Assembly: GCA_016875735.1 (NCBI GenBank)
Contig: VGOW01000013.1
Coordinates: 3,564 to 67,563, forward strand
Length of the DNA: 64,000 nt
Direction: 5' to 3'
Source of the DNA: Chloroflexota bacterium
GTDB taxonomy: Bacteria; Chloroflexota; Anaerolineae; Anaerolineales; VGOW01
Shown here piece after piece: positions 5,890-23,033 of the stretch. The notes under the pieces were generated by a model, which had not been told where the DNA came from, did not search any database, and saw nothing but the letters and a program-made list of their open reading frames with translations. The translations under genes were made by a program, and so were the position numbers. How positions within the stretch are numbered: the stretch's first letter is position 1; every line of letters begins with the position of its first letter.

Positions 5890-7044
5890 ATGAAACTCGC
5901 CCTCAACGGCTGGTTCTACGATCAACCGCACACCGGCAGCGGCCAATATCTGCGCGGCCTGCTCGATCACCTCCCCCTCGCCGCGCCCGATATTGAGATC
6001 ACACTCATCGCGCCTCGGCCCATTCAACTCGAATCCAATCACGCCTCCCGCCTCCCGCTCCACGCCTCCCGCTCCACGCCCGACGCCGCGCGCTCGAACC
6101 TCTCCAAACTTAAATTCGAGCAGCTCGACTTCCCCGCCGCTTGCAAACGCATCAACGCCGATCTCGCCCACATCCCGTATTGGGCGCCGCCCCTCGCCTC
6201 CCCCGTTCCGTTCGTCGCCACCATTCACGATCTCATCCCCCTCCTCATCCCCGAATACAATCGCGCCCTCAAAGCCCGCTTCTACAACGCCCTCGTGTCG
6301 GCGGCCACACCCGGCGCGGCTCACCTCATCGCCGATTCCGACTCCTCGCGCAATGACATCATCCAGCGCCTCCGCGTTCCGCCGGAAAAAGTGACTGCCA
6401 TTCACCTCGCCGTCGGCCCCGAATACAAGCCCGCGCCCGACTCTCCCCGCGACGCCGTCATTCGACAAAAATACAATCTGCCCGACTCATACGTCCTCTA
6501 CCTCGGCGGATTCCAGCCGCACAAAAACGCGCGCAGCCTCCTCGCCGCGTGGACGTGGTGCGACGGCTCCATCGGCGAGCAATATCCGCTCGTCATCGCC
6601 GGAAAACTTCCCGCGCGCGGCGATCGTTTCCACGACGATCTTCCGGCTTACGCGAAACAACTCGGCATCGCCGAGAGTGTCCGCTTCATCGGCCCCGTCG
6701 CCGAAGAGGACAAGCCCGCGCTCTATCGCGGCGCGGCCTGTTTCGTTTTCCCGTCTCGATACGAAGGCTTCGGCCTTCCGCCGCTCGAAGCCCTTGCCTG
6801 CGGAGCGCCCGTTGTCACCACCGCTTTCGCTTCCATCCCCGAAGTGGTGGGCGAGGCCGCTTACCTCGTCCGCGATCCCGACGACACGCGCTCGCTCGGC
6901 GCGGCCATCCTCGCCGTCGTCGTCAACCCCGATGTGGTGGATCGACTCGCCACAGCCGCGCGCGCGCAAGCTCAAAAGTTCAGTTGGCAAAGGACTGCGG
7001 AAGAAACTGCCGCTGTTTACCGAAAAGCATTGCGGCGCGGATAG
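5890..7044 (+). CDS. Glycosyltransferase family 4 (GT-B)
   Basis: ATG at 5890; the track start at 5878 is a TTG inside the repeat. 'SRYEGFGLPPLEALACGAPVV' EX7E motif. Confidence 0.8.
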   Translation: MKLALNGWFYDQPHTGSGQYLRGLLDHLPLAAPDIEITLIAPRPIQLESNHASRLPLHASRSTPDAARSNLSKLKFEQLDFPAACKRINADLAHIPYWAPPLASPVPFVATIHDLIPLLIPEYNRALKARFYNALVSAATPGAAHLIADSDSSRNDIIQRLRVPPEKVTAIHLAVGPEYKPAPDSPRDAVIRQKYNLPDSYVLYLGGFQPHKNARSLLAAWTWCDGSIGEQYPLVIAGKLPARGDRFHDDLPAYAKQLGIAESVRFIGPVAEEDKPALYRGAACFVFPSRYEGFGLPPLEALACGAPVVTTAFASIPEVVGEAAYLVRDPDDTRSLGAAILAVVVNPDVVDRLATAARAQAQKFSWQRTAEETAAVYRKALRRG

Positions 7045-7082
7045 ATCGACACGGCCAAGCGAATCCGTGTACCATTGACTCA

Positions 7083-9692
7083 ATGTCTCCCGCCGCAAAC
7101 CCCACGCCGAAGATGGCAGATCGCTTTCTTTCCTTCATCACTCATCGCTCACGGCAAAGCCGTCCTTTAGGATCGCTCATCGTTACATTTCTCGCCTTCT
7201 TCGCCCTCTACGCCTTCACCCTCTCGCCCGGCCTCCTCCCCGCCGACTCTGGCGAGTTCCAAACCGTCGTTCCATTGCTCGGCGTCGCCCACCCGCCGGG
7301 CTTCTCGCTCTACATTCTGCTCGGCAAACTCTTCACCGGCCTCGTCCGCATTGGCAGCTACGCTTATCGCCTCAACCTCTTCTCTGCGTTCACCTCAGCC
7401 ATCACCCTCGCCCTCGTCACCCTCGTCGTCCAACGCCTCACTCGCCCCACTCCTCACGCCCCACTCCTCACGAATCTGCCCGGCTTCCTCGCCGCCTTCA
7501 TACTCGGCGTCTCCACCACCTTTTGGTCGCAAGCCACCACCGCCAACATTCGCAGTCTCATGGCCCTGCTCACCGCGCTGGCCGTGTGCGCCCTCATCGA
7601 ATACCAACTCAACCCCACCATCAACCGACTCGCCTTTCTCGCCTTCACCCTCTCCCTCGCCGTCGTTCATCACCTCTCCATTGCCTTCATCGCCATCACT
7701 CTCGCCGCCGCCGCCATCGTGTTCACCCCCTCACCCCGTCATCTTGTCACCCCAAAGATTCTCCTCAAACTCAGTGTGTCTATTGTTGCCCCTCTCGCCG
7801 TTCTCCTCTACCTCCCCATTCGCGGCGCGGCGGGCGCCTACCTTGCCCCGCCCGGCCTCAACACCCTCAACGGATTCCTGCAACACGCGCTCGGCCTCGG
7901 CTTCGGCGGCGACTTCTTTTACTTCGCCAACCTCTCCGCCCTCCCCGATCGCCTCGCCATCCTCCTCAACATCTTCCTCTTTCAATTCAACGCGCCGACT
8001 CTGATCCTCCTCGCCATCGGCCTCCTCCTCTTTTTCTTCCGCGATCCGAAACTTGCCGCCGCTCTCACCCTCGCTTTCGCCGTTCACTGCGTTGTCGCCA
8101 TCACCTACCGCGCCCCGCAAACCGTCGAATACCTTTTGCCCGCCTACGTCATCCTCGTCATCACCGCCCTCAGCGGTTGGCAATTCATCTTTGACCGTTG
8201 GCCTTCCCGCTTTGAAGTTTGGACTTTGAAGTTTGCCCTTTATTGTTCATTCTTCATTTCCTCATTGCTCATTCTGTTTCGCAACTACCCCGCCTACAAA
8301 ACCCTCTCCCACGACGACTCCACTCGCGCCCACGCCGAAGGCCTCCTCCTCGCCGCGCACCCCAACGCCCTCATCCTTGCCAACTGGCACTACGCCACGC
8401 CGCTCTGGTATCTGCAGCGCATCGAAGGCGTCCGCCCCGATGTCACCGTCGAATACGTTTTTCCGCAGGGCGCATCGCTCACCCAAAACTGGGTGGATCA
8501 GATCAACGCCAACGCCGCCGACCGCCCAACCATCGTCACCAATTTTTATCCGACAGAATACGCTTCACTGCCCCATCGCTTCCTCCCCATCCTCACCGCA
8601 TTGCCCGCATGGCAAGCCGCCACCGACCCCCTCACCGATCCGATCCCCGCCGCGCCCACTCACGAGGGTGGTTGGGCCTTTCTCAGCGGCGGCCCCATTT
8701 CACAGAGCCCGCTCACACAAAACGAATCCTTCACCGTCCAAATCTTTTGGCAAGCGCCCGAGTCACCCACCGATATTAACTTCTTCGTGCAGCTCATCGG
8801 CCCCGATGGATTGCTCTACGGCCAAGCCGACGTGTTCCACCCGGCGGGCAAACTCACGCCGCATGAAATCATTTCAGATCGACTCGCCCTCGCCGTCAAC
8901 GCCGATGCGCCCCTCGCCGACGGCTACTCGCTGGTCACCGGCGCGTATCTCCCCGATGGCCGCCGCCTCGCCCCCGACTTCACCGAGATCGCCGCACTCG
9001 CCGTCATCCCCTCGACCTCGGCTCCCTCCACCCTCCACCCTTCACTTCTCCCCAACCTCATCGCCGGATACGATTACGATCTCTCCATTCCCGACTCTCC
9101 CCGCCTCTACCTCCACTGGCGACTCGATGGGCAATCGCACAACCTCACCCTCGCCGATTCAACCGGCGCATTCACCCAGCCCATCGCCCTCCCGCCTCTC
9201 ACCGGTTATATCACCACCTCTCACGACCTCCCTCCCGGCTGGCAGACTACCACCCTCACCGCTGACGGCTTCTCATTCCGCATTCCGCATTCCGCATTCC
9301 GCATTACAGATCGCCGCCTCTCCTTCGGCCCGCTCACCCTCGTCGGCGCGGCCATCACCAAAGAAAGCGACGGCTCGTATCGGGTTGACCTCGACTGGAT
9401 GGCGAACGAGCCGATCATCAATGATCACATCGTCAAAGTTGATCTCGTCGGCGAAAATTATTCGTGGCGCGATCAGTCGGACTCCGTCCCCGCGGGTGGC
9501 GCAATCCCCACCCTCAAATGGATCCCCGGCATCCTCATTCACGACCGCCACCGATTGAGAATGCTTCAGCCCACGCTTGCCGCTTTTCAACTCGCCGTGT
9601 ACGATCACTTCACCCAACGCAACCTCCCCCTCCTCGATTCCCGCCTCGCCCTCCTCGGCCCCACTGTTCCCCTCGGCGTCGTTCAGCCATAA
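7083..9692 (+). CDS. DUF2723-type polytopic membrane protein (GT-C-like, putative glycosyltransferase) with C-terminal beta-rich modules
   Basis: In-frame ATG at 7083. The track ORF from 6549 is an Arg-rich read-through overlapping the GT4 gene. 'LLPADSGEFQ..GVAHPPGFSLY' and many TM segments. Confidence 0.7.
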   Translation: MSPAANPTPKMADRFLSFITHRSRQSRPLGSLIVTFLAFFALYAFTLSPGLLPADSGEFQTVVPLLGVAHPPGFSLYILLGKLFTGLVRIGSYAYRLNLFSAFTSAITLALVTLVVQRLTRPTPHAPLLTNLPGFLAAFILGVSTTFWSQATTANIRSLMALLTALAVCALIEYQLNPTINRLAFLAFTLSLAVVHHLSIAFIAITLAAAAIVFTPSPRHLVTPKILLKLSVSIVAPLAVLLYLPIRGAAGAYLAPPGLNTLNGFLQHALGLGFGGDFFYFANLSALPDRLAILLNIFLFQFNAPTLILLAIGLLLFFFRDPKLAAALTLAFAVHCVVAITYRAPQTVEYLLPAYVILVITALSGWQFIFDRWPSRFEVWTLKFALYCSFFISSLLILFRNYPAYKTLSHDDSTRAHAEGLLLAAHPNALILANWHYATPLWYLQRIEGVRPDVTVEYVFPQGASLTQNWVDQINANAADRPTIVTNFYPTEYASLPHRFLPILTALPAWQAATDPLTDPIPAAPTHEGGWAFLSGGPISQSPLTQNESFTVQIFWQAPESPTDINFFVQLIGPDGLLYGQADVFHPAGKLTPHEIISDRLALAVNADAPLADGYSLVTGAYLPDGRRLAPDFTEIAALAVIPSTSAPSTLHPSLLPNLIAGYDYDLSIPDSPRLYLHWRLDGQSHNLTLADSTGAFTQPIALPPLTGYITTSHDLPPGWQTTTLTADGFSFRIPHSAFRITDRRLSFGPLTLVGAAITKESDGSYRVDLDWMANEPIINDHIVKVDLVGENYSWRDQSDSVPAGGAIPTLKWIPGILIHDRHRLRMLQPTLAAFQLAVYDHFTQRNLPLLDSRLALLGPTVPLGVVQP
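7133..7185. repeat. Intragenic repeat with 34-nt core shared with 10393-10456
   Basis: 'tcacggcaaagccgtcctttaggatcgctcatcg' flanked by 'ctcatcg' words. Translated 'HRSRQSRPLGSLIV'. Confidence 0.75.
8211..8276. repeat. Intragenic heptamer words ('tttgaag/tttggac', then 'ttcattg' type)
   Basis: 'tttgaagtttggactttgaagtttg' shares 18 nt with the reverse complement of hairpin 28146-28200. Followed by 'ttattgttcattcttcatttcctcattgctcattctg'. Confidence 0.7.
9273..9307. repeat. Intragenic tandem heptamers 'gcattcc' x5
   Basis: 'tcattcc gcattcc gcattcc gcattcc gcattac', translated 'SFRIPHSAFRIT'. The same word occurs at 43568-43595. Confidence 0.85.
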
Positions 9693-9698
9693 CTTGCC

Positions 9699-12600
9699 AT
9701 GCGCGCCGCCTTTCGTCATTCGTCATTCGTCATTCGCCATTTGCCTCTCCTCGCTCTCGCCCTTCTCGCCATCTACCCTATCCTCGCCTCCGGCCTCCCC
9801 ACCACTGGCGACGGCCTAATTCACTACTATCGTTTCGCCGAACTCGATTGGCACATCCGCCATGGCGATCTCTACCCGCGCTGGTTCGACAACATGGGCT
9901 ACGGTTTCGGAATGCCCGTGCTCAACTTTTACGCGCCGCTCTCTTATTACATCCCCCTCCTCTTCCGACTCTTCAACCTATCCCTCGCCACATCACTGCA
10001 ACTCGGTTATGCCCTCGCCCTCGCCCTCGCCCTCCTCGGCGCGCACCAATGGGCCTCCGCCCTAACCACCCAACCACCGAACCACCGAACCACCCAACCA
10101 CCCAGCCACCTAACTGCCCTCCTCGCCGCCGCCGCGTACGGTCTCGCCCCCTACTTCTACTTCAACATCTTTCATCGCGGCGCATACCCCGAGACATGGG
10201 CGCTCGCCCTCGCCCCATGGCTCCTCTGGTCAGCGCACAAACTCGCCGAACAGCCGACCGCTCTTCGCTCCTCCCTCTTCACCGTTCTCCTCTCCGCCCT
10301 CATCCTCACCCATACCCTCTCTGCCCTCATCTTCATCCCGATCATCTCCGTTTACCTCATCGCCCTTTCCATCACTCATAACCTTGTTGCCCGTCGTTTG
10401 TCGTTCACGGCGAAGCCGTCCTTTAGGATCGTTCATCGCTCATCGCTCATCGTTTATCCCTTCGCCCTCTCCGCCTTCTTCATCCTCCCCCTCGCCTTCG
10501 AGTCGCAGTTCATCCAACTCTCTCGCGCCTTCTCCACCGGCGATCTCGATTACCATCGCAACTTCCTCAAACTCGCCGCCCTCCTCTCCTCGCCCCCCAA
10601 CTTCGATCCCCGCCTCGTCTTCAATGCCATACCCCCCAGCCTCGGTTGGCCGCAACTCCTGTTGGCGCTGTCAGCGGTTGGCGGTTGGCTGTTCGCCGCT
10701 CGCCGCAAATCACCGCTCGCCTCCCGCTCTCTCTTCATTGTTCATTGTTCATTGTTCATTCTTCTTTCCCTCCTCGCCCTCTCTATCACCGAGCCCCTCT
10801 GGAATCTTTTTCCCTTCGCCCGCTTCATCCAATTCCCATGGCGGCTCATCGGCCCCGCCTCCCTCTTCCTGGCCGCCCTCGCCAGCAATTCTCCAATCTC
10901 CAATCTCAACTCTCAAACATCAAAAACCCTCTTTCTCTCCGCCTCTATTGCCGCCTTCTTTTTCTTTTCCCTCCCTTGGACATATCACGCCGACTTCGCC
11001 CTCCACGCCCCACCCTCCACGCCCCACGCTCCAACCGACACCATCCGCTACGAAACCACCTCCGGCCAACTCGGCGCCGCCTCCACCGCCGAATACCTCC
11101 CCCGCTGGGTCGCCGCGATTCCCGATCCCAATACCCTCCTCCCACAATTCGCCGCCACCGAGACTCCCTCTCGACTCGCCCCGCTCCCCGAATCCGTTTC
11201 GCTCCACGCTTCACGCTTCACGCTTCACGCTCAAGAAATCATTTATGACTCCGCGTCCTCCTTCACCGCCGCCTTCAACCTCTTCTACTTTCCCGGCTGG
11301 GCGGCGACTCTCGACGGCGACCCGATCGGCATTCAACCCTCCTCGCCGCATGGGCTGATCACCGTTGCCCTGCCTGCCGGAACGCACACCCTGCGCCTCT
11401 CGCTCCAACCCACCGCGCCACAACGTATCGGCGTCCTTGTCTCCCTCGCCGCGCTGCTCATACTCATCCTTCGCCTCGTCCGCCGCCCCTCATCCACTGC
11501 TCACCGTTCACCGCCCGCCAATCGCCAATCACCAATCACCAATTACCAGCCACCGATCATTGTGTCATTGTTCATTGCCTCATTGCTCCTCGCCCGCGCC
11601 CTCTACTTCGACCGCGCCGAAACCATCTTCCACCACACCGACGTTATCCCCAATCCGCTCTCCGTCAACATCGAAGATCAACTCGAACTCCTCGGCTACG
11701 AATTTCCAAAAGGGACTCAATTCGCATCCGACTCCCAACTACCAATCACCCTCTACTGGCGGGCGCTCGCGCCGCTCACCACCGATTACTCCACCACCGT
11801 CCAACTCGCCGATCGCTTCGGCAACCGCTTCGGCCAATCCGACAGCCAGCATCCCAACGGCGTCCCCACCTCCCGCTGGGCGCTCAATCAATACGCTCGC
11901 GACTCGCACACACTCGTTCCCCTCATCGGCGCGCCCCCCGGCGTTTACAAATTACTGATCACCGTTTACGCCTCGCGCCCCCTCAGCATCCTTCAAGATT
12001 CTGCGCCCGCCGGAATCGAATATGAACTCGGCGCGGTGACCATCACTCGCGGCCAGCCCCAGCCGCCCGGCCCCCTCACGCTGACCGACTCTGATCTGGC
12101 AACCGACTCCGTTTCCGTCGGCGATCAGCTGGCCTTCACCCTCTTGTGGAACTCCGGCGACAAGCCCCTGCCCGTTCTCACCGCGCGAGTGTTGCTGGCC
12201 GACTCCGCCGATCAAACGATCTTCTCTGCCGACCTTCCTCCTTCCGGAGAAGATTACCCGACGAGCCAATGGGCGCTCAACGAACTCGTCCGCTTCCCAT
12301 TCAGTGTCGGCCTCCCGCCCGATCTGCCCGGCGGAGCGGCGCGAGTCCGCATCCTTCTGCTCGACGCCAACGGCATGATCTGGGCCGGGCCATTCGACAT
12401 CGGCATGATCACCATCGCCGTGCCGGAGCGCTCGTATATCATTCCGCCGATGCAGGTTCGAGTCGATCACGATTTTGCGAAAGCGATCCGTTTGCTGGGG
12501 TACGACCTTGCGCCCGACTCGATCACACTCTACTGGCAATCGCTCGCGCCAGTGGCGCAGAGGCTCACGGCCTTCGTGCATCGGCTCGACGACTCGGGCG

Positions 12601-12770
12601 CGTTCGTGGCCGGGCACGATGCCCCGCCGAGTCGGCCTGCCACCGGCTGGCTTCCCGGCGAAGTGGTGGCCGACTCGCATCCCATTTCTGCGGGCGAGCG
12701 TTTCGAAATTGGACTCTATGACCCAATGACAGGGGAAAGATTCGGTGAAGTTTTTGTAACACCCCGTTAA
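9699..12770 (+). CDS. PTPS-related-domain polytopic membrane protein (GT-C-like) with C-terminal beta-rich modules
   Basis: 1023 aa. 'YPRWFDNMGYGFGMPVLNFYAPLSYY'. Clear paralog of 38108-41074. Contains at least 7 word-repeat insertions. Confidence 0.65.
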   Translation: MRAAFRHSSFVIRHLPLLALALLAIYPILASGLPTTGDGLIHYYRFAELDWHIRHGDLYPRWFDNMGYGFGMPVLNFYAPLSYYIPLLFRLFNLSLATSLQLGYALALALALLGAHQWASALTTQPPNHRTTQPPSHLTALLAAAAYGLAPYFYFNIFHRGAYPETWALALAPWLLWSAHKLAEQPTALRSSLFTVLLSALILTHTLSALIFIPIISVYLIALSITHNLVARRLSFTAKPSFRIVHRSSLIVYPFALSAFFILPLAFESQFIQLSRAFSTGDLDYHRNFLKLAALLSSPPNFDPRLVFNAIPPSLGWPQLLLALSAVGGWLFAARRKSPLASRSLFIVHCSLFILLSLLALSITEPLWNLFPFARFIQFPWRLIGPASLFLAALASNSPISNLNSQTSKTLFLSASIAAFFFFSLPWTYHADFALHAPPSTPHAPTDTIRYETTSGQLGAASTAEYLPRWVAAIPDPNTLLPQFAATETPSRLAPLPESVSLHASRFTLHAQEIIYDSASSFTAAFNLFYFPGWAATLDGDPIGIQPSSPHGLITVALPAGTHTLRLSLQPTAPQRIGVLVSLAALLILILRLVRRPSSTAHRSPPANRQSPITNYQPPIIVSLFIASLLLARALYFDRAETIFHHTDVIPNPLSVNIEDQLELLGYEFPKGTQFASDSQLPITLYWRALAPLTTDYSTTVQLADRFGNRFGQSDSQHPNGVPTSRWALNQYARDSHTLVPLIGAPPGVYKLLITVYASRPLSILQDSAPAGIEYELGAVTITRGQPQPPGPLTLTDSDLATDSVSVGDQLAFTLLWNSGDKPLPVLTARVLLADSADQTIFSADLPPSGEDYPTSQWALNELVRFPFSVGLPPDLPGGAARVRILLLDANGMIWAGPFDIGMITIAVPERSYIIPPMQVRVDHDFAKAIRLLGYDLAPDSITLYWQSLAPVAQRLTAFVHRLDDSGAFVAGHDAPPSRPATGWLPGEVVADSHPISAGERFEIGLYDPMTGERFGEVFVTPR
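9714..9741. repeat. Intragenic tandem heptamers 'cgtcatt' x4
   Basis: 'cgtcatt cgtcatt cgtcatt cgccatt' at codons 6-14 (FRHSSFVIRH). Confidence 0.85.
10064..10114. repeat. Intragenic heptamer words ('ccaacca/ccgaacc' family)
   Basis: 'aaccacccaaccaccgaaccaccgaaccacccaaccacccagccacctaac' encodes 'TTQPPNHRTTQPPSHL', which is absent from the paralog. Confidence 0.8.
10393..10456. repeat. Intragenic repeat with 34-nt core shared with 7133-7185
   Basis: 'tcacggcgaagccgtcctttaggatcgttcatcg' plus 'ctcatcg' words. Translated in a different frame from the 7133 copy ('SFTAKPSFRIVHRSSLIV'). Confidence 0.75.
10733..10764. repeat. Intragenic tandem heptamers 'gttcatt' x4
   Basis: 'cttcatt gttcatt gttcatt gttcatt cttc' (SLFIVHCSLFIL). 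Confidence 0.85.
10886..10928. repeat. Intragenic heptamer words ('ccaatct' family)
   Basis: 'caattctccaatctccaatctcaactctcaaacatcaaaaacc'. The same word occurs in the 44999 hairpin and in acnA at 50133. Confidence 0.75.
11204..11233. repeat. Intragenic tandem heptamers 'acgcttc' x4
   Basis: 'ccacgcttcacgcttcacgcttcacgctca' (HASRFTLHAQ). The same word occurs in hairpin 26668-26750. Confidence 0.85.
11498..11588. repeat. Intragenic run of heptamer words ('caatcac' then 'cattgtt')
   Basis: 'ccaatcgccaatcaccaatcaccaattaccagccaccgatcattgtgtcattgttcattgcctcattgctc' with period 7 throughout. Confidence 0.8.
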
Positions 12771-17142: not shown

Positions 17143-17250
17143 GTGACAAGATGAAAGGATGACAAGATGACAGCATGGCACGATGACAGGATGCTCGAAG
17201 TGGTAGCCGATACAACCTGTCATCCTGTCACCCACTCATCGTGCCATCAT
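17143..17250. repeat. Octamer-word hairpin ('gacaagat' family)
   Basis: 'gacaagat|gaaaggat|gacaagat|gacagcat|ggcacgat|gacaggat' pairs with 'catcctgtcacccactcatcgtgccatcatg'. Related to 30815-30901. Confidence 0.8.
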
Positions 17251-18357
17251 GTTTCGATACACTTTCACTGTCTCATCGGCCACACGCTTTTGGGTGAACA
17301 GCGCCAGCATCCGCTCGCGGCCTTTGGCTCGCAGGTCGGCGCGGAGGGAGTCGCTCGATTGCAATTGGCGCAGGGCATCGGCGAGGGCGGGCGCGTTACC
17401 TTCGGGGACGATCAGCCCGGCATCGCCGATCACGTTCGGGATCTCACCGCAGGTGGAGCCGACGACAGGGACGCCGCAGGCCATCGCTTCGACGAGCACG
17501 CGGCCAAATTGCTCTTTCCAGTTCGGTTGAGTGATCGAAGGGAGAACGAGCGCGTCGATGGAGTGAAGGAAGTTTGGGAATTCGGTGGAGGGCATCCACG
17601 CGCGAACGCTGAGGCGGCTTCCCATGCCGCAATCGTTCGCGAGTTGGATCAAAGCCTCACGCCGGGGCCCACTGCCTACGAGAACGAGTCGAGCATGGTT
17701 GTCGAGTCCGGCAACGGCGCGAATCAAAATGTCCGCCCCTTTTTCGGGGACGAAGCGACCAGCGTAGGCGATGGTGAAACCCTCACCCCTTTCCCCTCTC
17801 CCAAAGGGAGAGGGGGACAGGGGGTGAGAGTACAAGTTTTCGTCCACGCCGAATTGCGGGATGACGGCGACCGGCCCGCGATAGCCTTTGGCCCGCCAAA
17901 CTTTTTCGGAATCGTGATTGCCGCAGATGGCGTAATCGGCGCGGCGGAGAACGCGCGACTCGATGGCGTTGAAGGGAAAGGGGTAGCGGCGGTTGAGGTT
18001 CTGCCACGAGAAGAAGAGGGCGCGGGCGCTGTGCTTGCGCGCCAGCCGAAGCGCGTGCCACGTGGCGAGGTTATACGGCTCTTCGTCGATGTGGGCAATG
18101 TCGGGTTGCACTTCAGCGAAACGCTTGGCGAGTCGCGGGTAGAAGTGAAGATGAAAGTTCCCATTGAGCGCCATCGGCTCCACGACGAGTCGGTAGCCCT
18201 TCGTGTACGAGCGTTCCAGTTTGAGTGCGCCGCGCTCGTCGCGCCATTCGGGCGGCACGATCACCGTCAGTTCGACATCCTCGTGGGCGGCCATCTCTTC
18301 CAGCTTGCGCTGGTACGCGCCGACGACGCAGGCTTTGGAAATCATAAGCACACGCAT
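17236..18357 (-). CDS. Glycosyltransferase family 4
   Basis: Start at 'MRVLMISKACVVGAY' (18357). 'EQFGRVLVEAMACGVPVVGS'. Contains an in-frame palindromic element. Confidence 0.8.
   Translation of the reverse strand: MRVLMISKACVVGAYQRKLEEMAAHEDVELTVIVPPEWRDERGALKLERSYTKGYRLVVEPMALNGNFHLHFYPRLAKRFAEVQPDIAHIDEEPYNLATWHALRLARKHSARALFFSWQNLNRRYPFPFNAIESRVLRRADYAICGNHDSEKVWRAKGYRGPVAVIPQFGVDENLYSHPLSPSPFGRGERGEGFTIAYAGRFVPEKGADILIRAVAGLDNHARLVLVGSGPRREALIQLANDCGMGSRLSVRAWMPSTEFPNFLHSIDALVLPSITQPNWKEQFGRVLVEAMACGVPVVGSTCGEIPNVIGDAGLIVPEGNAPALADALRQLQSSDSLRADLRAKGRERMLALFTQKRVADETVKVYRNMMAR
17780..17828. repeat. GC-rich palindromic element, full copy, in-frame inside the GT4 gene
   Basis: 'ccctcacccctttcccctctccc aaa gggagagggggacagggggtgag', translated 'HPLSPSPFGRGERGEG'. 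Confidence 0.8.
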
Positions 18358-18372: not shown

Positions 18373-18440
18373 GTTCAAACTCCAAACTTCAAACTCCAAA
18401 CTTCAAACTCCCAATTTGAGGTTTGAAGTTTGGAGTTTGT
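18373..18440. repeat. Heptamer-word hairpin ('caaactc/caaactt' family) in a divergent promoter region
   Basis: 'gttcaaa|ctccaaa|cttcaaa|ctccaaa|cttcaaa|ctcccaa|tttgagg|tttgaag|tttggag|tttg'. Thirty-five nt are identical to the reverse complement of 28146-28200. Confidence 0.9.
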
Positions 18441-18452
18441 TGTTTTCGAGTC

Positions 18453-18458
18453 TATAAT
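18453..18458 (+). promoter_or_regulatory. Candidate -10 box TATAAT for the glycoside hydrolase gene (leadered, with SD)
   Basis: 'tctataatcctctgcaattcacaccGGAGGaaacccATG'. Confidence 0.4.
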
Positions 18459-18486
18459 CCTCTGCAATTCACACCGGAGGAAACCC

Positions 18487-20844
18487 ATGCCCAGCAAACT
18501 CGGCCCGCATTGTTTGAGACCCACGCGCTCGGCGCGCGAGATGATCGACGCCGGATGCCGGATCGTGAAATTAGTGGACGACTTTGGCCTTGCGCCGGAA
18601 TTGGCGAGCAAACCCGGCCTGACCCTCATTGGCCGAGTGTATGCTCATGACCCGCGCACCGCCGAAGAGCAGCGCGGCGAGGACCCTGAAGCCGCCGCCC
18701 GCCGCTTCGTCGATTCGCAAAAGGAAAAGTATCGGCTCAATCCGGCCATCAAAATTTGGGAAGGGCACAACGAGCCGGTGTGGGGAAGCCGCGAGGATAT
18801 GGAATGGTATGCGCGATTCGAAATCGCCCGGCTCAAAATTCTGGCCGACATGGGCCTGCGCGGAGTGATCGCCTGCTTTGCCACCGGCAGCCCGGGCGAC
18901 ATCGAACTGTGGAAGTGGTTCACCCCTGCCGTGCAGGCGGCCAAACAACAAAAGGGCATTCTGGGCCTGCACGAGTATTCCTCGCCGTGGGTGTGGTGGA
19001 TGTCCGGCAAGTTTCAAATGAATCCCAACGAAGACGCCCGCGATGAAGGCTGGACGACTCTGCGCTACCGCAAAATCATGCGCAACTACCTCAAGCCCGC
19101 CGGATGCGACGACGTGCCCATCGCCATCACCGAGTTCGGCCTCGACCGAGTCAGCCCGGTGCCGCAGGGCGCCTCCACCGGCAACTGGCGCACCAACGCC
19201 GATTGGTGGGGACAGTGGGACGGCTCGCGCGATCCGATTGACTATTGGCGCGGCGGCGGGCGCGACGCCGAGCAGTATTACGCCGAACAAATGATCTGGT
19301 ACGACAAAGAAATACGCAAAGACCCCAACGTGGTCGGCGCAACCATCTTCACCTTCGGATGGACAAACGATGCGTGGCGCGATTACGACATCGACGACAC
19401 GCGAGTCGCCTCGCACCTCAACGATTACATCCGCCGTGAAGCTAACGTGGCCGATAAAGCCGCCGCCGCGCCGACCCCGCCCGTCACCCAACCAACGAAC
19501 AACCAAATCACCCAACCACCCATCACCCCCCCCCAGCCCGTCATCATCGTCACCCCTCCGCCATCGGGGAGCGCCACCGTGGGCGGCAACCTCCTGCGCA
19601 ACGCAAACTTTGACGAAGGTCACTATCGCTGGCACGGCGTTCCCGAAATCGTCATCCCCAACGAATGGGATTTCTGGCACGCCGTCCATACCACCCCGCG
19701 CCTCGAACGGCAAGATCAAAACTTCGACCCGCCCGAATGCGTGGTGTGGCAGATCGCCGGAGCGCCCGCCGAAGAACGCTCACTCTTTTTCCTCAGCGGC
19801 GACTACTGCCTCAAAATCTTCAAAGGCTGGGGCGTAATCTGGTGGCGGCTCTTCCAAACCGTCAACGGCCTCACGCCCGGTCAACGCTACCGTTTCACCG
19901 CGCCCATCTATCCTGATCTGGTGATGGCCTATGAAGAGGGCAAAGGCAAAGTCTTCGCTGATGACCCGTTGGCCGGAGAAGTTCGATTGAGCGCGAAGAG
20001 CGGCGGCAAAGAAGTGGAGACGGGCTGGCTCGACGGAGCGAAATTCCCCTTCGGCAAATACACTCACTTCACCCTCGACTTCGTCGCCCAGAACGCCTCG
20101 GCCGAAGTCTCGCTCGAATGTCGGGGACGGTGGGGATTGATCAACAACGGCTGGTTCTGCGACTCGATGAAACTGGAAGCCATCGGCGCGGCCTCAACCC
20201 TTCAACCCGCCGGGACGCCGACACCACCGCGCTCCGGCAACCTTCTGCAAAACCCCGACTTCAGCGGCGGCACATTCCAGCCCAACTCGGCCATCCGCAA
20301 CATGGAAGCGCCCAACGGTTGGACGTTTTGGAACGCTACCGAGAACACGGCCAAAGTGGCCAAGCAAACCGAATCGTTCCGACCGCCGCGCGCCGGAGTG
20401 ATCACCCCGGCCAACGCGCAGGCCGACGATAAAGATGGACTCGTCGGCGGCATCCCGCGCGCCTATCGAGTCGTGGGCAATTGGCGCGCAGTGTGGTTCA
20501 GCCTCAGCCAAAAAGTGAGCGGGCTTGCGCCGGGCAAACGTTATCGCTTCACCGCGCAGATGATGCCCGACCCGGTGGAAAAATACGCGCCGCCGAACAA
20601 CGCCAAACAATTCGTGGCCGACCCCGACGGCGGCGAAGTGTGGCTTAAATCGCAGAGCAGTGGGCAGAAGACTGAAACGCACAAACGAGTCAACGCCGAC
20701 TTCAAGCCCGGCGGCTACGTCGCTTTCACTCACGAGTTCACTGCCGCCGCCGCCGAAGCCACCGTCACCCTCGAAGTCCGCGCCCGCTACGCCCTGACGC
20801 AGAACGCATGGTACATCGCCGAGGCAAGGGTGGAGGCGGTGTAG
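18487..20844 (+). CDS. Clan GH-A-like TIM-barrel glycoside hydrolase with Pro/Thr linker and two CBM4/9-like modules
   Basis: ATG at 18487 after GGAGG. 'WEGHNEP' and 'IAITEFG' resemble the clan GH-A acid/base and nucleophile motifs. Two roughly 190-aa modules start 'GNLLRNANFD' and 'GNLLQNPDFS'. No obvious signal peptide. Confidence 0.55.
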   Translation: MPSKLGPHCLRPTRSAREMIDAGCRIVKLVDDFGLAPELASKPGLTLIGRVYAHDPRTAEEQRGEDPEAAARRFVDSQKEKYRLNPAIKIWEGHNEPVWGSREDMEWYARFEIARLKILADMGLRGVIACFATGSPGDIELWKWFTPAVQAAKQQKGILGLHEYSSPWVWWMSGKFQMNPNEDARDEGWTTLRYRKIMRNYLKPAGCDDVPIAITEFGLDRVSPVPQGASTGNWRTNADWWGQWDGSRDPIDYWRGGGRDAEQYYAEQMIWYDKEIRKDPNVVGATIFTFGWTNDAWRDYDIDDTRVASHLNDYIRREANVADKAAAAPTPPVTQPTNNQITQPPITPPQPVIIVTPPPSGSATVGGNLLRNANFDEGHYRWHGVPEIVIPNEWDFWHAVHTTPRLERQDQNFDPPECVVWQIAGAPAEERSLFFLSGDYCLKIFKGWGVIWWRLFQTVNGLTPGQRYRFTAPIYPDLVMAYEEGKGKVFADDPLAGEVRLSAKSGGKEVETGWLDGAKFPFGKYTHFTLDFVAQNASAEVSLECRGRWGLINNGWFCDSMKLEAIGAASTLQPAGTPTPPRSGNLLQNPDFSGGTFQPNSAIRNMEAPNGWTFWNATENTAKVAKQTESFRPPRAGVITPANAQADDKDGLVGGIPRAYRVVGNWRAVWFSLSQKVSGLAPGKRYRFTAQMMPDPVEKYAPPNNAKQFVADPDGGEVWLKSQSSGQKTETHKRVNADFKPGGYVAFTHEFTAAAAEATVTLEVRARYALTQNAWYIAEARVEAV
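19485..19526. repeat. Heptamer-like words ('ccaacca' family) encoding the P/T/Q linker
   Basis: 'cacccaaccaacgaacaaccaaatcacccaaccacccatcac' (PVTQPTNNQITQPPIT). Confidence 0.5.
20778..20844 (+). repeat. 67-bp direct repeat, copy A (functional 3' end of the GH gene)
   Basis: 60/67 identity to 21443-21509. The first 34 nt are identical. Both copies end in TAG. Confidence 0.9.
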
Positions 20845-20890
20845 TTGCGACATCCCAACGCTCGAAGGCATTCGAGATATTAAGATTGCT

Positions 20891-21151
20891 ATGCCAACTA
20901 TCTGCATCTTTGACGGCATCAAAATCCTGATGTATTATCGTGATCACCTGCCGCCGCACTTTCACGCCGAGCGCGCAGACGAAGCCGCCGAAATCGGGAT
21001 CGACCCGATCATGATTTTGGAGGGCGAACTCGGGCGGGTCACTCGCGCAAAAGTGTTCGAGTGGGCGGCCATCCATCAGCCCGAGCTTCGCGCCAATTGG
21101 GAACTTGCCCGCGCTGGTTTACCGTTGCGACAAATCGAGCCGCTGGACTGA
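20891..21151 (+). CDS. DUF4160 family protein
   Basis: 86 aa. 'MPTICIFDGIKILMYYRDHLPPHFHAE...ELRANWELA' is a typical DUF4160 pattern. Confidence 0.8.
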   Translation: MPTICIFDGIKILMYYRDHLPPHFHAERADEAAEIGIDPIMILEGELGRVTRAKVFEWAAIHQPELRANWELARAGLPLRQIEPLD

Positions 21152-21165
21152 AGGGAATTGCTGCC

Positions 21166-21432
21166 ATGATCATTCACATCACCGAAGTCAAGGTCGTTGG
21201 CCCGTATTCGCTCGATTTGGCATTCGACAATGGCCTGCGTAGGCGAGTCAATCTGCGCCGAGAATTGTATGGCCCGATCTTTGAGCCTCTGCGCGACCCG
21301 GCTTACTTTGCTCAAGTGTTCGTTGACCCGACCTCGCGCACGATCTCTTGGCCCAACGGCGCGGACTTCGCCCCAGACTTTCTGAGTCAGATGGAGCCAG
21401 AGGAAACCTCTGCGGAGACGATTGCCCAATAA
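21166..21432 (+). CDS. DUF2442 family protein
   Basis: 88 aa from 'MIIHITEVKVVGPYSLDLAFDNG...ISWPNGADFAPDFL'. Usual partner of DUF4160. Confidence 0.8.
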   Translation: MIIHITEVKVVGPYSLDLAFDNGLRRRVNLRRELYGPIFEPLRDPAYFAQVFVDPTSRTISWPNGADFAPDFLSQMEPEETSAETIAQ

Positions 21433-21442
21433 CCACTGCACG

Positions 21443-21509
21443 CCGCGCCCGCTACGCCCTGACGCAGAACGCATGGCACATCGCCGAAGCGAGAGTGGAA
21501 GCGATCTAG
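21443..21509 (+). repeat. 67-bp direct repeat, copy B (orphan copy of the GH gene 3' end)
   Basis: Encodes 'ARYALTQNAWHIAEARVEAI*' versus the functional 'ARYALTQNAWYIAEARVEAV*'. Followed by a typical gene-end hairpin. Confidence 0.9.
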
Positions 21510-21521
21510 CGCATCGGAATG

Positions 21522-21592
21522 TTCTCACCGCAGAGACACAGAGAATGCAGAGAAAAATAGAATCTCTGTGGGCTCCGTGTCTCCGCGGTTAA
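21522..21592. repeat. Word hairpin ('gcagaga' family)
   Basis: 'ttctcaccgcagagacacagagaatgcagag ... ctctgtgggctccgtgtctccgcggttaa'. Confidence 0.75.
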
Positions 21593-21608: not shown

Positions 21609-22961
21609 ATGATCACGATCAATCGCTCCCGCCTCCAAACTCTCCTCGCCCGCGAAAACGATCTCTTCACTCAGCAACATCCCAAATCGAAAGCCCTCTT
21701 CGAGCGCGCAACGGCCAGCCTGCTCAACGGCGTGCCCATGAATTGGATGGTGCGCTGGGCCGGGCCGTTCCCGGTGTTCGTCGACTCGGCATCGGGCGCG
21801 CACTTCACCGACGTGGACGGCAATCGTTATCTCGATCTGTGTCTCGGCGACACGGGGGCGATGACCGGCCACGCGCCGCCAGCCACAGTGGACGCCGTCA
21901 CTGCGCAAGCGCGCAACGGCCTCACGTACATGCTCCCCACCGAAGATGCGATCTGGGTGGGCGAAGAACTCAAGCGCCGCTTCGGCTTGCCGTATTGGCA
22001 GATTGCGATGACCGCCACCGACGCCAATCGTTTTTCGATCCGGCTCGCGCGGCAGATCACCGGGCGCAAATTGATCCTCGTTTACAACTGGTGTTATCAC
22101 GGCACGGTGGATGAAACTTTCGTCACGTTGAACGACGGCGTACCCGGCCCGCGCCCCGGCAACATCGGCCCGGCAGTGAACCCGGCGACGACGACGCGGG
22201 TGATCGAGTTCAACGACATCGCCGCCCTCGAAGCCGCGCTCGAACCGTGTGATGTGGCGTGCGTGCTGGCCGAACCGGCCATGACCAACATCGGCATCAT
22301 CCACCCTGACCCCGGCTATCACGAGGCCCTGCGCGAGATCACCCGGCGCACCGGCACATTGCTCATCATCGACGAGACGCACACCATTTGCGCCGGGCCG
22401 GGCGGCTACACCCGCGCCCACACCCTCCAGCCCGATATGCTCACCATCGGCAAGCCCATCGCGGGCGGCTTCCCGGCGGCGGCCTACGGCTTCAGCGACT
22501 CGGTGGCCGAACGCATCCGCGCCAACGAAGATCGCGAAAACGCCGACGTGGGCGGCATCGGCGGCACGCTGTCGGCGAATGCGCTGGCTCTGGCCGCCAT
22601 CCGCGCTACGCTCGGCAACGTCCTCACCGAGTCGGCTTACGAGAAAATGATCCCGCTCGCCGAGCGATTCGAATCAGGCGTGCAATCGGTGATTGACGAA
22701 TTTCAACTGCCATGGATCGTCAAACGACTTGGATGTCGGGCCGAATACTGGTTTCGTCCCGCGCCCCCGCGCAACGGCGGAGAGGCGGCCGCCGCCGCCG
22801 ATCCCGAACTCGACCGCTACATGCACCTCTTCGCTTTGAATCGCGGCATCCTCATGACCCCATTCCATAACATGGCCCTCATCGCCCCCGACACGACGGA
22901 CGCCGACATTGATTGCCACACCAGCGTGTTCCGCGCCGCGGTCCAAACCTTGATCGATTGA
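21609..22961 (+). CDS. Class III (GSA-aminomutase-like) PLP-dependent aminotransferase
   Basis: 450 aa. 'IIDETHT', 'TIGKPIAGGFP' (PLP lysine context). Confidence 0.8.
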   Translation: MITINRSRLQTLLARENDLFTQQHPKSKALFERATASLLNGVPMNWMVRWAGPFPVFVDSASGAHFTDVDGNRYLDLCLGDTGAMTGHAPPATVDAVTAQARNGLTYMLPTEDAIWVGEELKRRFGLPYWQIAMTATDANRFSIRLARQITGRKLILVYNWCYHGTVDETFVTLNDGVPGPRPGNIGPAVNPATTTRVIEFNDIAALEAALEPCDVACVLAEPAMTNIGIIHPDPGYHEALREITRRTGTLLIIDETHTICAGPGGYTRAHTLQPDMLTIGKPIAGGFPAAAYGFSDSVAERIRANEDRENADVGGIGGTLSANALALAAIRATLGNVLTESAYEKMIPLAERFESGVQSVIDEFQLPWIVKRLGCRAEYWFRPAPPRNGGEAAAAADPELDRYMHLFALNRGILMTPFHNMALIAPDTTDADIDCHTSVFRAAVQTLID

Positions 22962-22962
22962 T

Positions 22963-23033
22963 TTCACCGCAGAGATCGCCGAGCACGCAGAGATTCAAAT
23001 CACCTCCGCGATCTCTGCGCGCCCTGCGGTGAT
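22963..23033. repeat. Word hairpin ('gcagaga' family)
   Basis: 'ttcaccgcagagatcgccgagcacgcagagat ... gcgatctctgcgcgccctgcggtga'. Confidence 0.75.

Follow-up and report, generated by a model that had tools for sequence, protein, structure and literature searches.

A Predicted DhiT/DhiA-Type Toxin-Antitoxin Cassette between Diverged Copies of a Hydrolase Gene End in an Anaerolineales Bacterium

Introduction

Chromosomal toxin-antitoxin modules are patchily distributed, are found in hotspots and usually lack mobility genes, and the way in which they move between genomes is poorly understood. In this work we examine a candidate toxin-antitoxin cassette in a 64,000-nucleotide stretch of contig VGOW01000013.1 (referred to here as the window), which comes from an Anaerolineales bacterium according to the names of its closest proteins. 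The cassette consists of two small genes, encoding a DUF4160 and a DUF2442 protein, and lies between two diverged copies of the last 67 nucleotides (nt) of a predicted glycoside hydrolase gene. We will examine the locus in related genomes, the recurrence of the arrangement at other DUF4160 loci and the differences between the duplicated gene ends, which suggest that a resident gene end may have been displaced by recombination. Loci and proteins used for comparison are designated by L and P numbers.

The closest described relatives of the cassette are DhiT and DhiA of Dickeya dadantii 3937, an experimentally tested type II system of a DUF4160 and a DUF2442 protein encoded in the toxin-first order (PMC8198452). 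Dickeya DhiT inhibits the growth of D. dadantii and E. coli and is neutralized by DhiA, with which it forms a complex that acts as a repressor of the dhiTA promoter (PMC8198452). DUF4160 is also the effector domain of the Menshen NsnC proteins, and it has no known structural homologue (PMC12065111).

The duplicated gene end has its own parallels. At the E. coli housekeeping gene icd, the element e14 or phage 21 is accompanied by a replacement gene end beside the element and a displaced icdC fragment beyond it, and recombination restores a chimeric gene (PMC13626634). In both this case and the window, the gene remains intact with its 3' end occupied by the element, the displaced end lies beyond the element and the differences between the ends are mainly silent or conservative. 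However, e14 is a 15-kb prophage with an integrase and a defined attachment (att) core, whereas the insert in the window measures 0.66 kb, has no recombinase and has relatives at many target genes. Insertion with long target duplication was described by Nobusato (2000) and by Furuta, Abe and Kobayashi (2010) for restriction-modification (R-M) units, by a mechanism that is unknown (PMC2853133). Such insertions are defined by a unit of <20 kb without mobility genes that is flanked by direct repeats of >30 bp, with a single copy of the repeat in the empty-site genome (PMC2853133). They resemble the window in being small addiction-type units without mobility genes between repeats of >30 bp, and some of them overlap gene 3' ends. 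They differ in that the cargo is an R-M unit and the repeats are near-identical, whereas here the cargo is a toxin-antitoxin pair, the edges of the repeats fall at coding boundaries and the copies show 10-14% divergence that follows a codon pattern. Finally, orphaned 3' ends at type VI secretion system (T6SS) and Rhs loci have been attributed to a proposed two-step process of homology-facilitated illegitimate recombination (PMC5361080). Displacement at Rhs, contact-dependent inhibition and T6SS loci is similar to the reading that we favor for the window, with a homologous join in the conserved part of the gene, an illegitimate join downstream, the gain of a new 3' end with a small gene and the orphaning of the old end. 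In those systems the displaced ends are different toxin tips whose diversity is selected, whereas at our locus the same enzyme peptide is encoded twice, the displacement would be a by-product and the toxin-antitoxin pair a passenger.

The individual components have thus been described before: the toxin-antitoxin family, gene ends that are surrogate or displaced, addiction modules flanked by long duplications, and hotspots of recombination. What appears to be undescribed in the literature searched is that a family of toxin-antitoxin cassettes is associated, with no recombinase involved, with diverged duplicates of neighboring coding ends, and the same appears to be true of evidence that such copies are functional alleles.

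Anatomy of the Duplication and Its Cargo

Positions 20778-20844 and 21443-21509 of the window form a 67-nt direct repeat with an identity of 60/67, in which the leading 34 nt contain no mismatch and both copies are closed by TAG. The similarity is bounded on the 3' side by the stop codon and on the 5' side by positions 20778 and 21443. Read in the hydrolase frame, the seven differences are TAC/CAC (Y/H), GAG/GAA at two codons, GCA/GCG, AGG/AGA and GTG/ATC (V/I, two bases). An earlier reading of the window, made from the sequence only, had described the repeat in these terms, and its length, identity, 34-nt head, TAG ends and seven differences were all confirmed. That reading would have fallen if the repeat were a generic one, which is ruled out because the 34-nt head occurs at only 2 sites in the 64-kb window with a chance expectation of 0. 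The hydrolase-end repeat is the sole long two-copy repeat of its kind in the window.

The proximal copy (20778-20844, forward strand) is predicted to be the working 3' end of the hydrolase gene. It comprises the last 22 codons and TAG, encodes the final beta-strand of the C-terminal sandwich, and the encoded peptide, RARYALTQNAWYIAEARVEAV, matches the end of orthologue P0001 at every residue and retains an invariant Tyr. The distal copy (21443-21509, forward strand) is contained in no credible open reading frame (ORF) in the ORF list of the window and would be what remains of the displaced hydrolase 3' end, a non-coding relic that is continuous with the native hairpin downstream. Between the two copies lie 598 nt with the DUF4160 and DUF2442 genes, as had been proposed and as Pfam confirms for both. 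The inserted unit as a whole measures 665 bp and contains two small ORFs only. Neither the ORF list nor Pfam revealed a recombinase or integrase in the 665 bp, in agreement with the earlier description of a cargo of about 600 bp without an integrase, and the genes on either side are core genes whose order is syntenic in L001 and L003. Integron or transposon-like ends were considered and rejected, as none were found and relatives of the cassette have just the ORFs in common; the 10 nt between the antitoxin stop codon and the distal copy contain no inverted repeat of the kind expected of an integron attC site, and the relatives have no common 3' end.

The leader (20845-20890, forward strand) spans the 46 nt from the hydrolase stop to the toxin start. 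The block TAAGATTGCT directly before the toxin ATG is fully kept in L001 and is present as a one-base variant, CAAGATTGCT, in L088. A TTGACA/TTGATA box lies upstream in the leader of L088/L001; the window leader has no such box, and no sigma-70-like site is predicted upstream of the toxin ATG in the window. Leader identity between genomes is about 61-63%, so this segment appears to be near-neutral. The right junction (21433-21442, forward strand) consists of the 10 nt from the antitoxin stop to the distal copy and is common to the window, L001 and L088. It reads TAA-CCACTGCACG in the window, TAG-GCCGCTGCG in L001 and TGATAG-ACCGCTGCA in L088, with CCGCGCC next in each, and the spacing from the antitoxin stop to CCGCGCC is 9-12 nt across the three.

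The predicted toxin gene (20891-21151, forward strand) encodes a DhiT-like protein of 86 amino acids (aa) that matches the full PF13711 (DUF4160) profile, positions 1-65, with an E value of 1.8e-16 and 60.5 bits (cut-off 23). The predicted antitoxin gene (21166-21432, forward strand) encodes an 88-aa DhiA-like protein that matches PF10387 (DUF2442) with an E value of 3.4e-11 and 43.6 bits (cut-off 23.9) and is a short form lacking the C-terminal half of DhiA. The two genes are co-oriented, toxin first and antitoxin second. The pair has both Pfam families, the unusual toxin-first order and the tight linkage of two small genes in common with DhiTA of Dickeya; the Dickeya genes overlap whereas those of the window are separated by 14 nt, and the 88 aa of the antitoxin compare with the 160 positions of the DhiA profile. 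The NCBIfam model toxin_DhiT scored 52.7 bits, under its equivalog cut-off of 100, and antoxin_DhiA scored 18.9 bits against a cut-off of 200 and over profile positions 2-69 of 160 only. Because these scores are far under the equivalog cut-offs, the pair is placed by its profile matches within the DhiT/DhiA type II toxin-antitoxin family as a member and not as an orthologue. The earlier reading of the pair as toxin-antitoxin-like therefore holds and can be given a family, while its description of such pairs as poorly characterized needs amending since one member has been validated experimentally (PMC8198452). By analogy with that member the window pair would be expected to include an active toxin. 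Identities between the window and L088 at codon positions 1, 2 and 3 are 94/98/71% for the toxin gene and 91/95/59% for the antitoxin gene, so both genes appear to be under purifying selection. PADLOC gave no match for the toxin, the antitoxin or the hydrolase, and a PHROGs search matched only uncharacterized families.

The Same Locus in Related Genomes

The sequence-only reading had proposed an insertion of the cassette at the hydrolase 3' end, where a second copy of that end kept the gene whole, and had pointed to related genomes as the place to look for an empty site. Such a site is present in L003 and L004, where the hydrolase gene has a single 67-nt copy and no DhiTA cassette. The filled counterpart is L088, which contains the cassette and both copies, the distal one with a Tyr-to-Cys change and a 5-nt frame-shifting insertion. 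Over ~1,400 nt of the hydrolase gene the identity of L088 and L003 is 99-100%, which makes them near-conspecific. Since the near-conspecific L003 is cassette-free and has the 67 nt once, the arrangement represents an insertion with a duplicated gene end, and the proposal stands. In L001 and L002, whose hydrolase is 83% identical to that of the window, the same cassette occupies the same place and ~20 nt of the distal copy can still be recognized. The toxin gene of L001 (about 7605-7640; the same is seen in L002) has a 1-nt deletion ten codons before its end, and the frame runs into the antitoxin gene; this is either decay of the toxin or an assembly error common to two assemblies of one study.

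Among the window, L001 and L088 the cassette is 82-86% identical and the flanking genes are 81-83% identical. Because the divergence of the cassette equals that of its flanks, the structure is old and predates the split of the three lineages, and judged from these identities it is not a recent integration. Preservation of the distal relic is best in the window; in L088 the relic carries a frameshift and in L001 it has almost disappeared. L088 and L003 can be told apart at 44 sites, confined to two short patches no more than ~430 nt from the cassette site, and by the stop codon; elsewhere they are identical. On sequence grounds these patches have the signature of a mosaic tract such as homologous recombination with a diverged sequence leaves behind. 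At the 44 sites the outgroup states are mixed and point to neither genome as the recipient. The proximal tail of L088 (SAK) is of the L003 type, and its distal tail (EAR) is of the type seen in the window, so that the whole structure in L088, including the relic, seems to have been imported or retained. The decay of the orthologous distal copies and the tail pattern of L088 indicate that the distal copy at this locus is an old relic that travels with the cassette. The suggestion that the distal copy is the original 3' end cannot be demonstrated here, as its orthologues have decayed, by the frameshift in L088 and nearly to nothing in L001.

L003 and L004 carry other cargo at the same place. Between their hydrolase and aminotransferase genes (7375-8253 in L003) lies a 182-aa ORF on the minus strand (L003 7436-7984) that had no Pfam, NCBIfam, PHROGs or PADLOC match. 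Diverged copies of the aminotransferase 5' end lie on either side of this ORF, the spare one at 7375-7432 and the one with the real start at 8192. The spare copy opens with an ATG of its own, 20 nt past the hydrolase stop, and the differences between the two aminotransferase ends fall at codon positions 1, 2 and 3 in the proportions 2/0/4. The case in L003 and L004 parallels that of the window, and the same type of scar thus arose twice at this intergenic site, once from a 3' end and once from a 5' end and with different cargo.

The region downstream of the hydrolase gene is variable in general. Its 3' flank differs in almost every relative, and the upstream glycosyltransferase genes are syntenic. 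The contents of this hotspot include BrnT/BrnA and a TumE pair in L166 (4226-5474), a TumE pair and HEPN/MNT in L005 (7381-9338), MNT in L167 (6517-6819) and unrelated genes in L169-L172. On the other side of the hydrolase gene, between it and a GT4 glycosyltransferase gene, L001-L004 have an R-M unit that consists of an N6_N4 methyltransferase with an HNH repeat and a DpnII/BanI-like endonuclease (L001 2335-4976, L003 2338-4976). The matching site of the window (18400-18486) contains a hairpin only, and no flanking duplication was found around the R-M unit in L001-L004.

Recurrence at Other DUF4160 Loci

The search for other flanked pairs that the sequence-only reading had called for was carried out on 160 DUF4160 loci. 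The 800 nt upstream of each pair were aligned against the 800 nt downstream, and repeats with a score of at least 24 were counted; 97 loci had full flanks, and 256 offset positions within the same loci served as controls. Bracketing repeats were found at 10 of the 97 loci compared with 4 of the 256 controls (Fisher P = 6e-4), and the control matches were generic repeats or tandem paralogues. At the control position in L084 there is a 47-nt coding-looking repeat (…KLDKLIWANLED…) at 1354-1400 and 2513-2559, near the ends of neighboring ORFs, which could be a further gene-end duplication around an unrelated insert.

Some of the ten positive loci have non-coding repeats, and in several the repeat is the duplicated coding end of a neighboring gene. 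The 3' end of rsmG is duplicated in L086 and L087, with weaker relics in L098 and L089; no duplicated rsmG end was detected in L006. In L133 about 50 nt of the purF 3' end are duplicated near-perfectly, and the spare end is joined in frame to the DUF2442 antitoxin (2182-2466), so that the antitoxin ends with the last ~16 residues of PurF and a stop. Because this junction lies inside the antitoxin ORF, it looks illegitimate and not site-specific. L153 has a perfect 127-nt repeat with TGA at its end. In L143 the 3' region of a TPR-protein gene is duplicated, in L040 the 3' end of a convergent ABC-transporter gene, and in L007 the 5' end of an aldo-keto reductase gene. The repeat edge is a stop codon in the window, L086, L133 and L087 and an ATG in L007 and L003. 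The homology between L086 and L087 (77.6%) covers rsmG, the cassette and the distal copy and stops exactly at the end of the distal copy. A different arrangement is seen in L105, where an ~80-aa gene is present on both sides of the DUF4160/DUF2442 pair (1024-1266 and 1972-2211; 186 nt, 85% identical); the differences are mostly at third positions, and the duplication is of a whole gene and not of a gene end.

Close relatives of the cassette, with 72-93% amino-acid identity, adjoin different genes. Across loci they have only the two ORFs in common, as the promoters, leaders and downstream sequence are locus-specific, and no terminal repeats or att-like conserved ends were found among the close relatives at other loci. 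The sequence-only reading had held that a cassette without the duplication would count against it. Such cassettes were found in L001, L006 and about 90% of loci; they reflect the decay of the relic and a majority of loci that is free of duplication, and the observation at this locus stands.

Differences between the Copies

The copies of five duplications (window, L086, L087, L007 and L003) differ at 36 positions, which are distributed over codon positions 1, 2 and 3 as 10/0/26. The absence of second-position changes (0/36) has a P of about 0.001 even if half of the changes are taken to be neutral. All 8 differences in L086 are synonymous, including TAA/TAG, a pattern matched in 0 of 20,000 simulations (P < 5e-5), and the codon pattern gives P = 6e-4 in L087 and P = 0.019 in the window. 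Beyond these five, the copies in L143 differ by two synonymous changes and one second-position change. Gene conversion is unable to create such a bias because it erases synonymous and non-synonymous differences alike, and the 10/0/26 spectrum does not fit the neutral decay of a simple target duplication. For the well-preserved cases, the simplest reading of these sequences is that the copies would be two functional alleles joined by recombination. The repeat edges at stop and start codons and the end of the homology between L086 and L087 point the same way.

In the window itself, 6 of the 7 differences are derived in the distal copy when compared with orthologues, including the loss of the Tyr that is invariant in 11 orthologues. 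All of the differences cluster in the last 33 nt (P = 0.005). The tail of the repeat is a variable part of the hydrolase gene, and the head is nearly invariant among orthologues. The identical 34-nt head was also considered as a crossover core, which is not needed since it is the most conserved segment of the gene among orthologues. The earlier claim that both copies evolved as coding sequence is therefore upheld by the analogous loci, with no second-position change among 36 and 8 of 8 synonymous in L086, and is weaker for the window, where P is ~0.02, 6 of 7 changes are distal and the Tyr is lost.

The distal copies of the window and L088 have the states GCG AGA in common and are 78% identical, whereas the neutral leader reaches 61%. 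The two copies of one genome also agree in lineage-specific synonymous states, AAC GCA in the window and AAT GCG in L088. The higher identity and the common lineage-specific states suggest occasional conversion of the relic from the working copy.

Origin of the Duplication

In our assessment there is about an even chance that the structure arose by a homology-anchored displacement of the gene end, free of any recombinase and with the anchor in the neighboring gene. The incoming DNA would have carried the cassette behind the 3' portion of a hydrolase allele, stop codon included. The join on the gene side would have formed by homologous recombination within the hydrolase gene, and the join on the other side, at a point 67 nt before the resident stop, through short homology or an illegitimate event. 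The incoming end would thereby have become the working gene end (the proximal copy), and the resident end would have been displaced downstream to become the non-coding relic (the distal copy) with the native hairpin still attached. No recombinase encoded by the element would be needed. We infer from this anatomy both the illegitimate join at the right junction and the assignment of each copy to a parent. Because the last 22 codons are present twice, the hydrolase gene remains intact. The structure would afterwards have been inherited and exchanged among related Anaerolineales by homologous recombination in the flanking genes, and the relic would decay or be repaired by conversion, with the working copy as donor. 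That the cassette persists is probably due to its being an addiction module, by analogy with its family. A displacement of this type would account for the variety of target genes, of repeat lengths and of repeat ends, for the junction in L133, for the codon spectrum and for the recombination tracts of L088 and L003.

Several observations weigh against the displacement. The coding-like pattern of the window is weak (P about 0.02), and 4 of the 6 distal changes are G-to-A, as could result from a mutational bias. The pattern in L086 could also have been produced by allelic replacement of the working copy after conversion, and a true target duplication would account just as well for the perfect repeats of L133 (about 50 nt) and L153 (127 nt). 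L003 matches the proximal (SAK) and not the distal (EAR) tail of L088, which does not fit a distal copy that is the end of the recipient. No cassette-free conspecific of the window was found, as the sole 100%-identical protein (P0010) has no contig on record and the next orthologue is 83% identical; likewise none was found for L086, where the next RsmG is 80% identical. About 90% of the DUF4160 loci show no bracketing repeat, and no gene-end duplication was found around BrnTA, the TumE pairs, MNT/HEPN or the R-M unit examined at the hotspot. The founding event at this locus is also ancient.

Among the alternatives, a long target duplication would mean that insertion of the cassette duplicated 67 nt of the target, that the copies were at first identical and that the spare one has decayed with occasional conversion. 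The locus has the hallmarks given by Furuta et al., with repeats of >30 bp, no mobility genes and a single copy in the empty-site genome (PMC2853133), and the perfect repeats in L133 and L153 and the decay of the distal copies in L088 and L001 are as expected. The states common to both copies of one genome (AAC GCA in the window and AAT GCG in L088) also fit, as does the 78% identity of the window and L088 distal copies next to a spacer at 61%, which is what conversion would leave. We nevertheless regard this explanation as unlikely, given the 10/0/26 spectrum and the 8 of 8 synonymous differences in L086, where ~8-12 non-synonymous changes would be expected under neutrality and where conversion cannot yield the synonymous bias. 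The location of most edges at a stop or start codon is unexpected for a randomly staggered target, and the published R-M repeats are near-identical to each other. Site-specific integration of an integrative element or its remnant, with a surrogate gene end in attP and an integrase that acted in trans or has since been deleted, was the analogy drawn in the sequence-only reading. The direct repeats at the gene end, the empty site, the anatomy that matches icd/icdC around e14 with mostly silent differences (PMC13626634) and an identical 34-nt head that could hold a crossover core all speak for the analogy, which fails in that there is no integrase in the 665 bp and there are no conserved att-like ends. 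The synteny of L001 and L003 leaves no space for a larger element, the targets vary (hydrolase, rsmG, purF and others) and are used at 3' or 5' ends, the repeats range from ~43 to at least 127 nt without conserved termini, the L133 junction lies within the antitoxin ORF, the L086 repeat has no identical run of >11 nt and the head is merely the most conserved part of the gene among orthologues; this explanation is quite improbable.

A Campbell-type single crossover mediated by RecA, in which a small circle with the cassette and one gene-end copy, looped out earlier elsewhere, entered the gene, would explain direct repeats of two functional alleles and the edge at the stop codon. The 34-nt identical head of the window is long enough for a crossover, and the repeats would permit precise loss, in keeping with cassette-free conspecifics. 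The chimera in L088 is, however, the reverse of what this predicts, since relative to the empty L003 its proximal tail is of the resident type and its distal tail of the foreign type. No identical stretch in the L086 repeat is long enough for RecA, a circle of 0.66 kb whose homology amounts to 67 nt at 90% would be a very poor substrate and the loss of an addiction module should be counter-selected, which together make this route very improbable. The idea that the distal copy is what is left of a third tandem domain resembling a carbohydrate-binding module (CBM), or of a tandem paralogue that lost its body to deletion or replacement, starts from features of the hydrolase, which has two tandem CBM-like domains with the DNA repeats D2 and D3 and whose orthologues P0004, P0007 and P0011 carry an extra C-terminal domain. 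It is hardly credible, as the similarity covers the final 67 nt, stop codon included, and nothing beyond them, the antitoxin gene lies directly upstream of the distal copy and the end of the first CBM domain is quite unlike it (…GWFCDSMKLEAI). The single copy in the near-conspecific genome and the same pattern at rsmG, purF and other unrelated genes effectively refute it.

The Hydrolase Gene and the Surrounding Region

The product of the host gene (18487-20844, forward strand) is a predicted hydrolase of secreted type, 785 aa in length, whose N-terminal (beta/alpha)8 barrel is accompanied by two CBM-like beta-sandwich domains. The start is the ATG at 18487 and not the TTG at 18430, as all orthologues (68-83% identity) begin at MPSKLG. 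The sequence had no match in Pfam, NCBIfam or the PDB. An AlphaFold2 model built from 26 homologues (predicted local distance difference test score, 87) has the barrel at residues 1-320 followed by the two beta-sandwiches, and Foldseek matched it to GH-A-type hydrolases (PslG, GH30, GH5 and GH2) and to CBM22/61/16 modules. An NEP motif and a second Glu, E216, are conserved. On the confident model, the Foldseek matches and the conserved residues, the label of glycoside hydrolase given in the sequence-only reading is upheld at the level of the fold, although it has no sequence-profile match. In the model the duplicated 22 codons correspond to the last beta-strand, residues 772-784. The CBM-like domains at 19584-20097 and 20235-20793 are an internal tandem duplication, visible as the DNA-level repeats D2 and D3 at a spacing of 651-696 nt, and the additional domain in P0004, P0007 and P0011 lies past the point at which this hydrolase ends.

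The hairpin that had been reported 3' of the distal copy is real (21527-21589, forward strand; arms 21527-21553 and 21563-21589), with a folding energy of -38.2 kcal/mol and a z of -3.8. It is long and imperfect and has no U-tract, and no hairpin follows the proximal copy. Neighboring genes end with similar hairpins, also without a U-tract, at 17144-17252, 18376-18445 and 22964-23032. The last of these follows the aminotransferase stop and has the stem base TCACCGCAGAGA in common with the hairpin at 21527-21589, and hairpins of the 18376 type (CAAACTCCAAACTTCAAAC) are also present in L091-L093. The gene-end hairpins may be a family similar to repetitive extragenic palindromic elements. Downstream lies a class-III aminotransferase gene (21609-22961, forward strand; PF00202, E value of 1.1e-40) that is syntenic in L001 and L003.

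Elsewhere in the window, a second repeat candidate of 38 nt at 7145 and 10401 was considered as another gene-end case and rejected, as it is the conserved N-terminal region of tandem paralogues of ~1,000 aa each. The paralogous ORFs (6549-9692 and 9699-12770, within 6549-12770) have the 38-nt stretch near their starts and contain several low-complexity CT-rich repeat families.

Implications for the Spread of Toxin-Antitoxin Modules

The locus is a case that can be dissected: near-identical genomes offer the site both empty and filled, recombination tracts are visible, and the relic can be followed through three stages of decay. The survey suggests that ~1 in 10 DUF4160/DUF2442 loci have a comparable scar, often at the coding end of a core gene. 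Orphan gene-end fragments beside small cassettes can be used to date and trace insertions in metagenome-assembled genomes.

A broader and more tentative idea, which we consider somewhat unlikely to be correct, is that modules of the DhiTA type, and perhaps other small addiction modules, spread as recombinase-free cassettes targeted to gene ends, with the duplicated end acting as a built-in second homology arm. If this is true, a block consisting of the 3' part of a gene, the cassette and the copy of the gene end could enter any genome that has the orthologous gene. Recombination would occur wholly within the gene, the sequence downstream would be irrelevant and the resident end would be displaced each time. 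The synonymous-only differences, the repeat edges at stop and start codons and the end of the L086/L087 homology at the distal copy would all be explained, and the process would be a distinct and unrecognized mode of mobility for toxin-antitoxin modules. If the duplicated end does aid the spread of the cassette, this would be a minimal form of mobility that depends on host recombination alone, and it would unite the surrogate gene ends of prophages, the long target duplications of R-M units and the C-terminal displacement at toxin loci.

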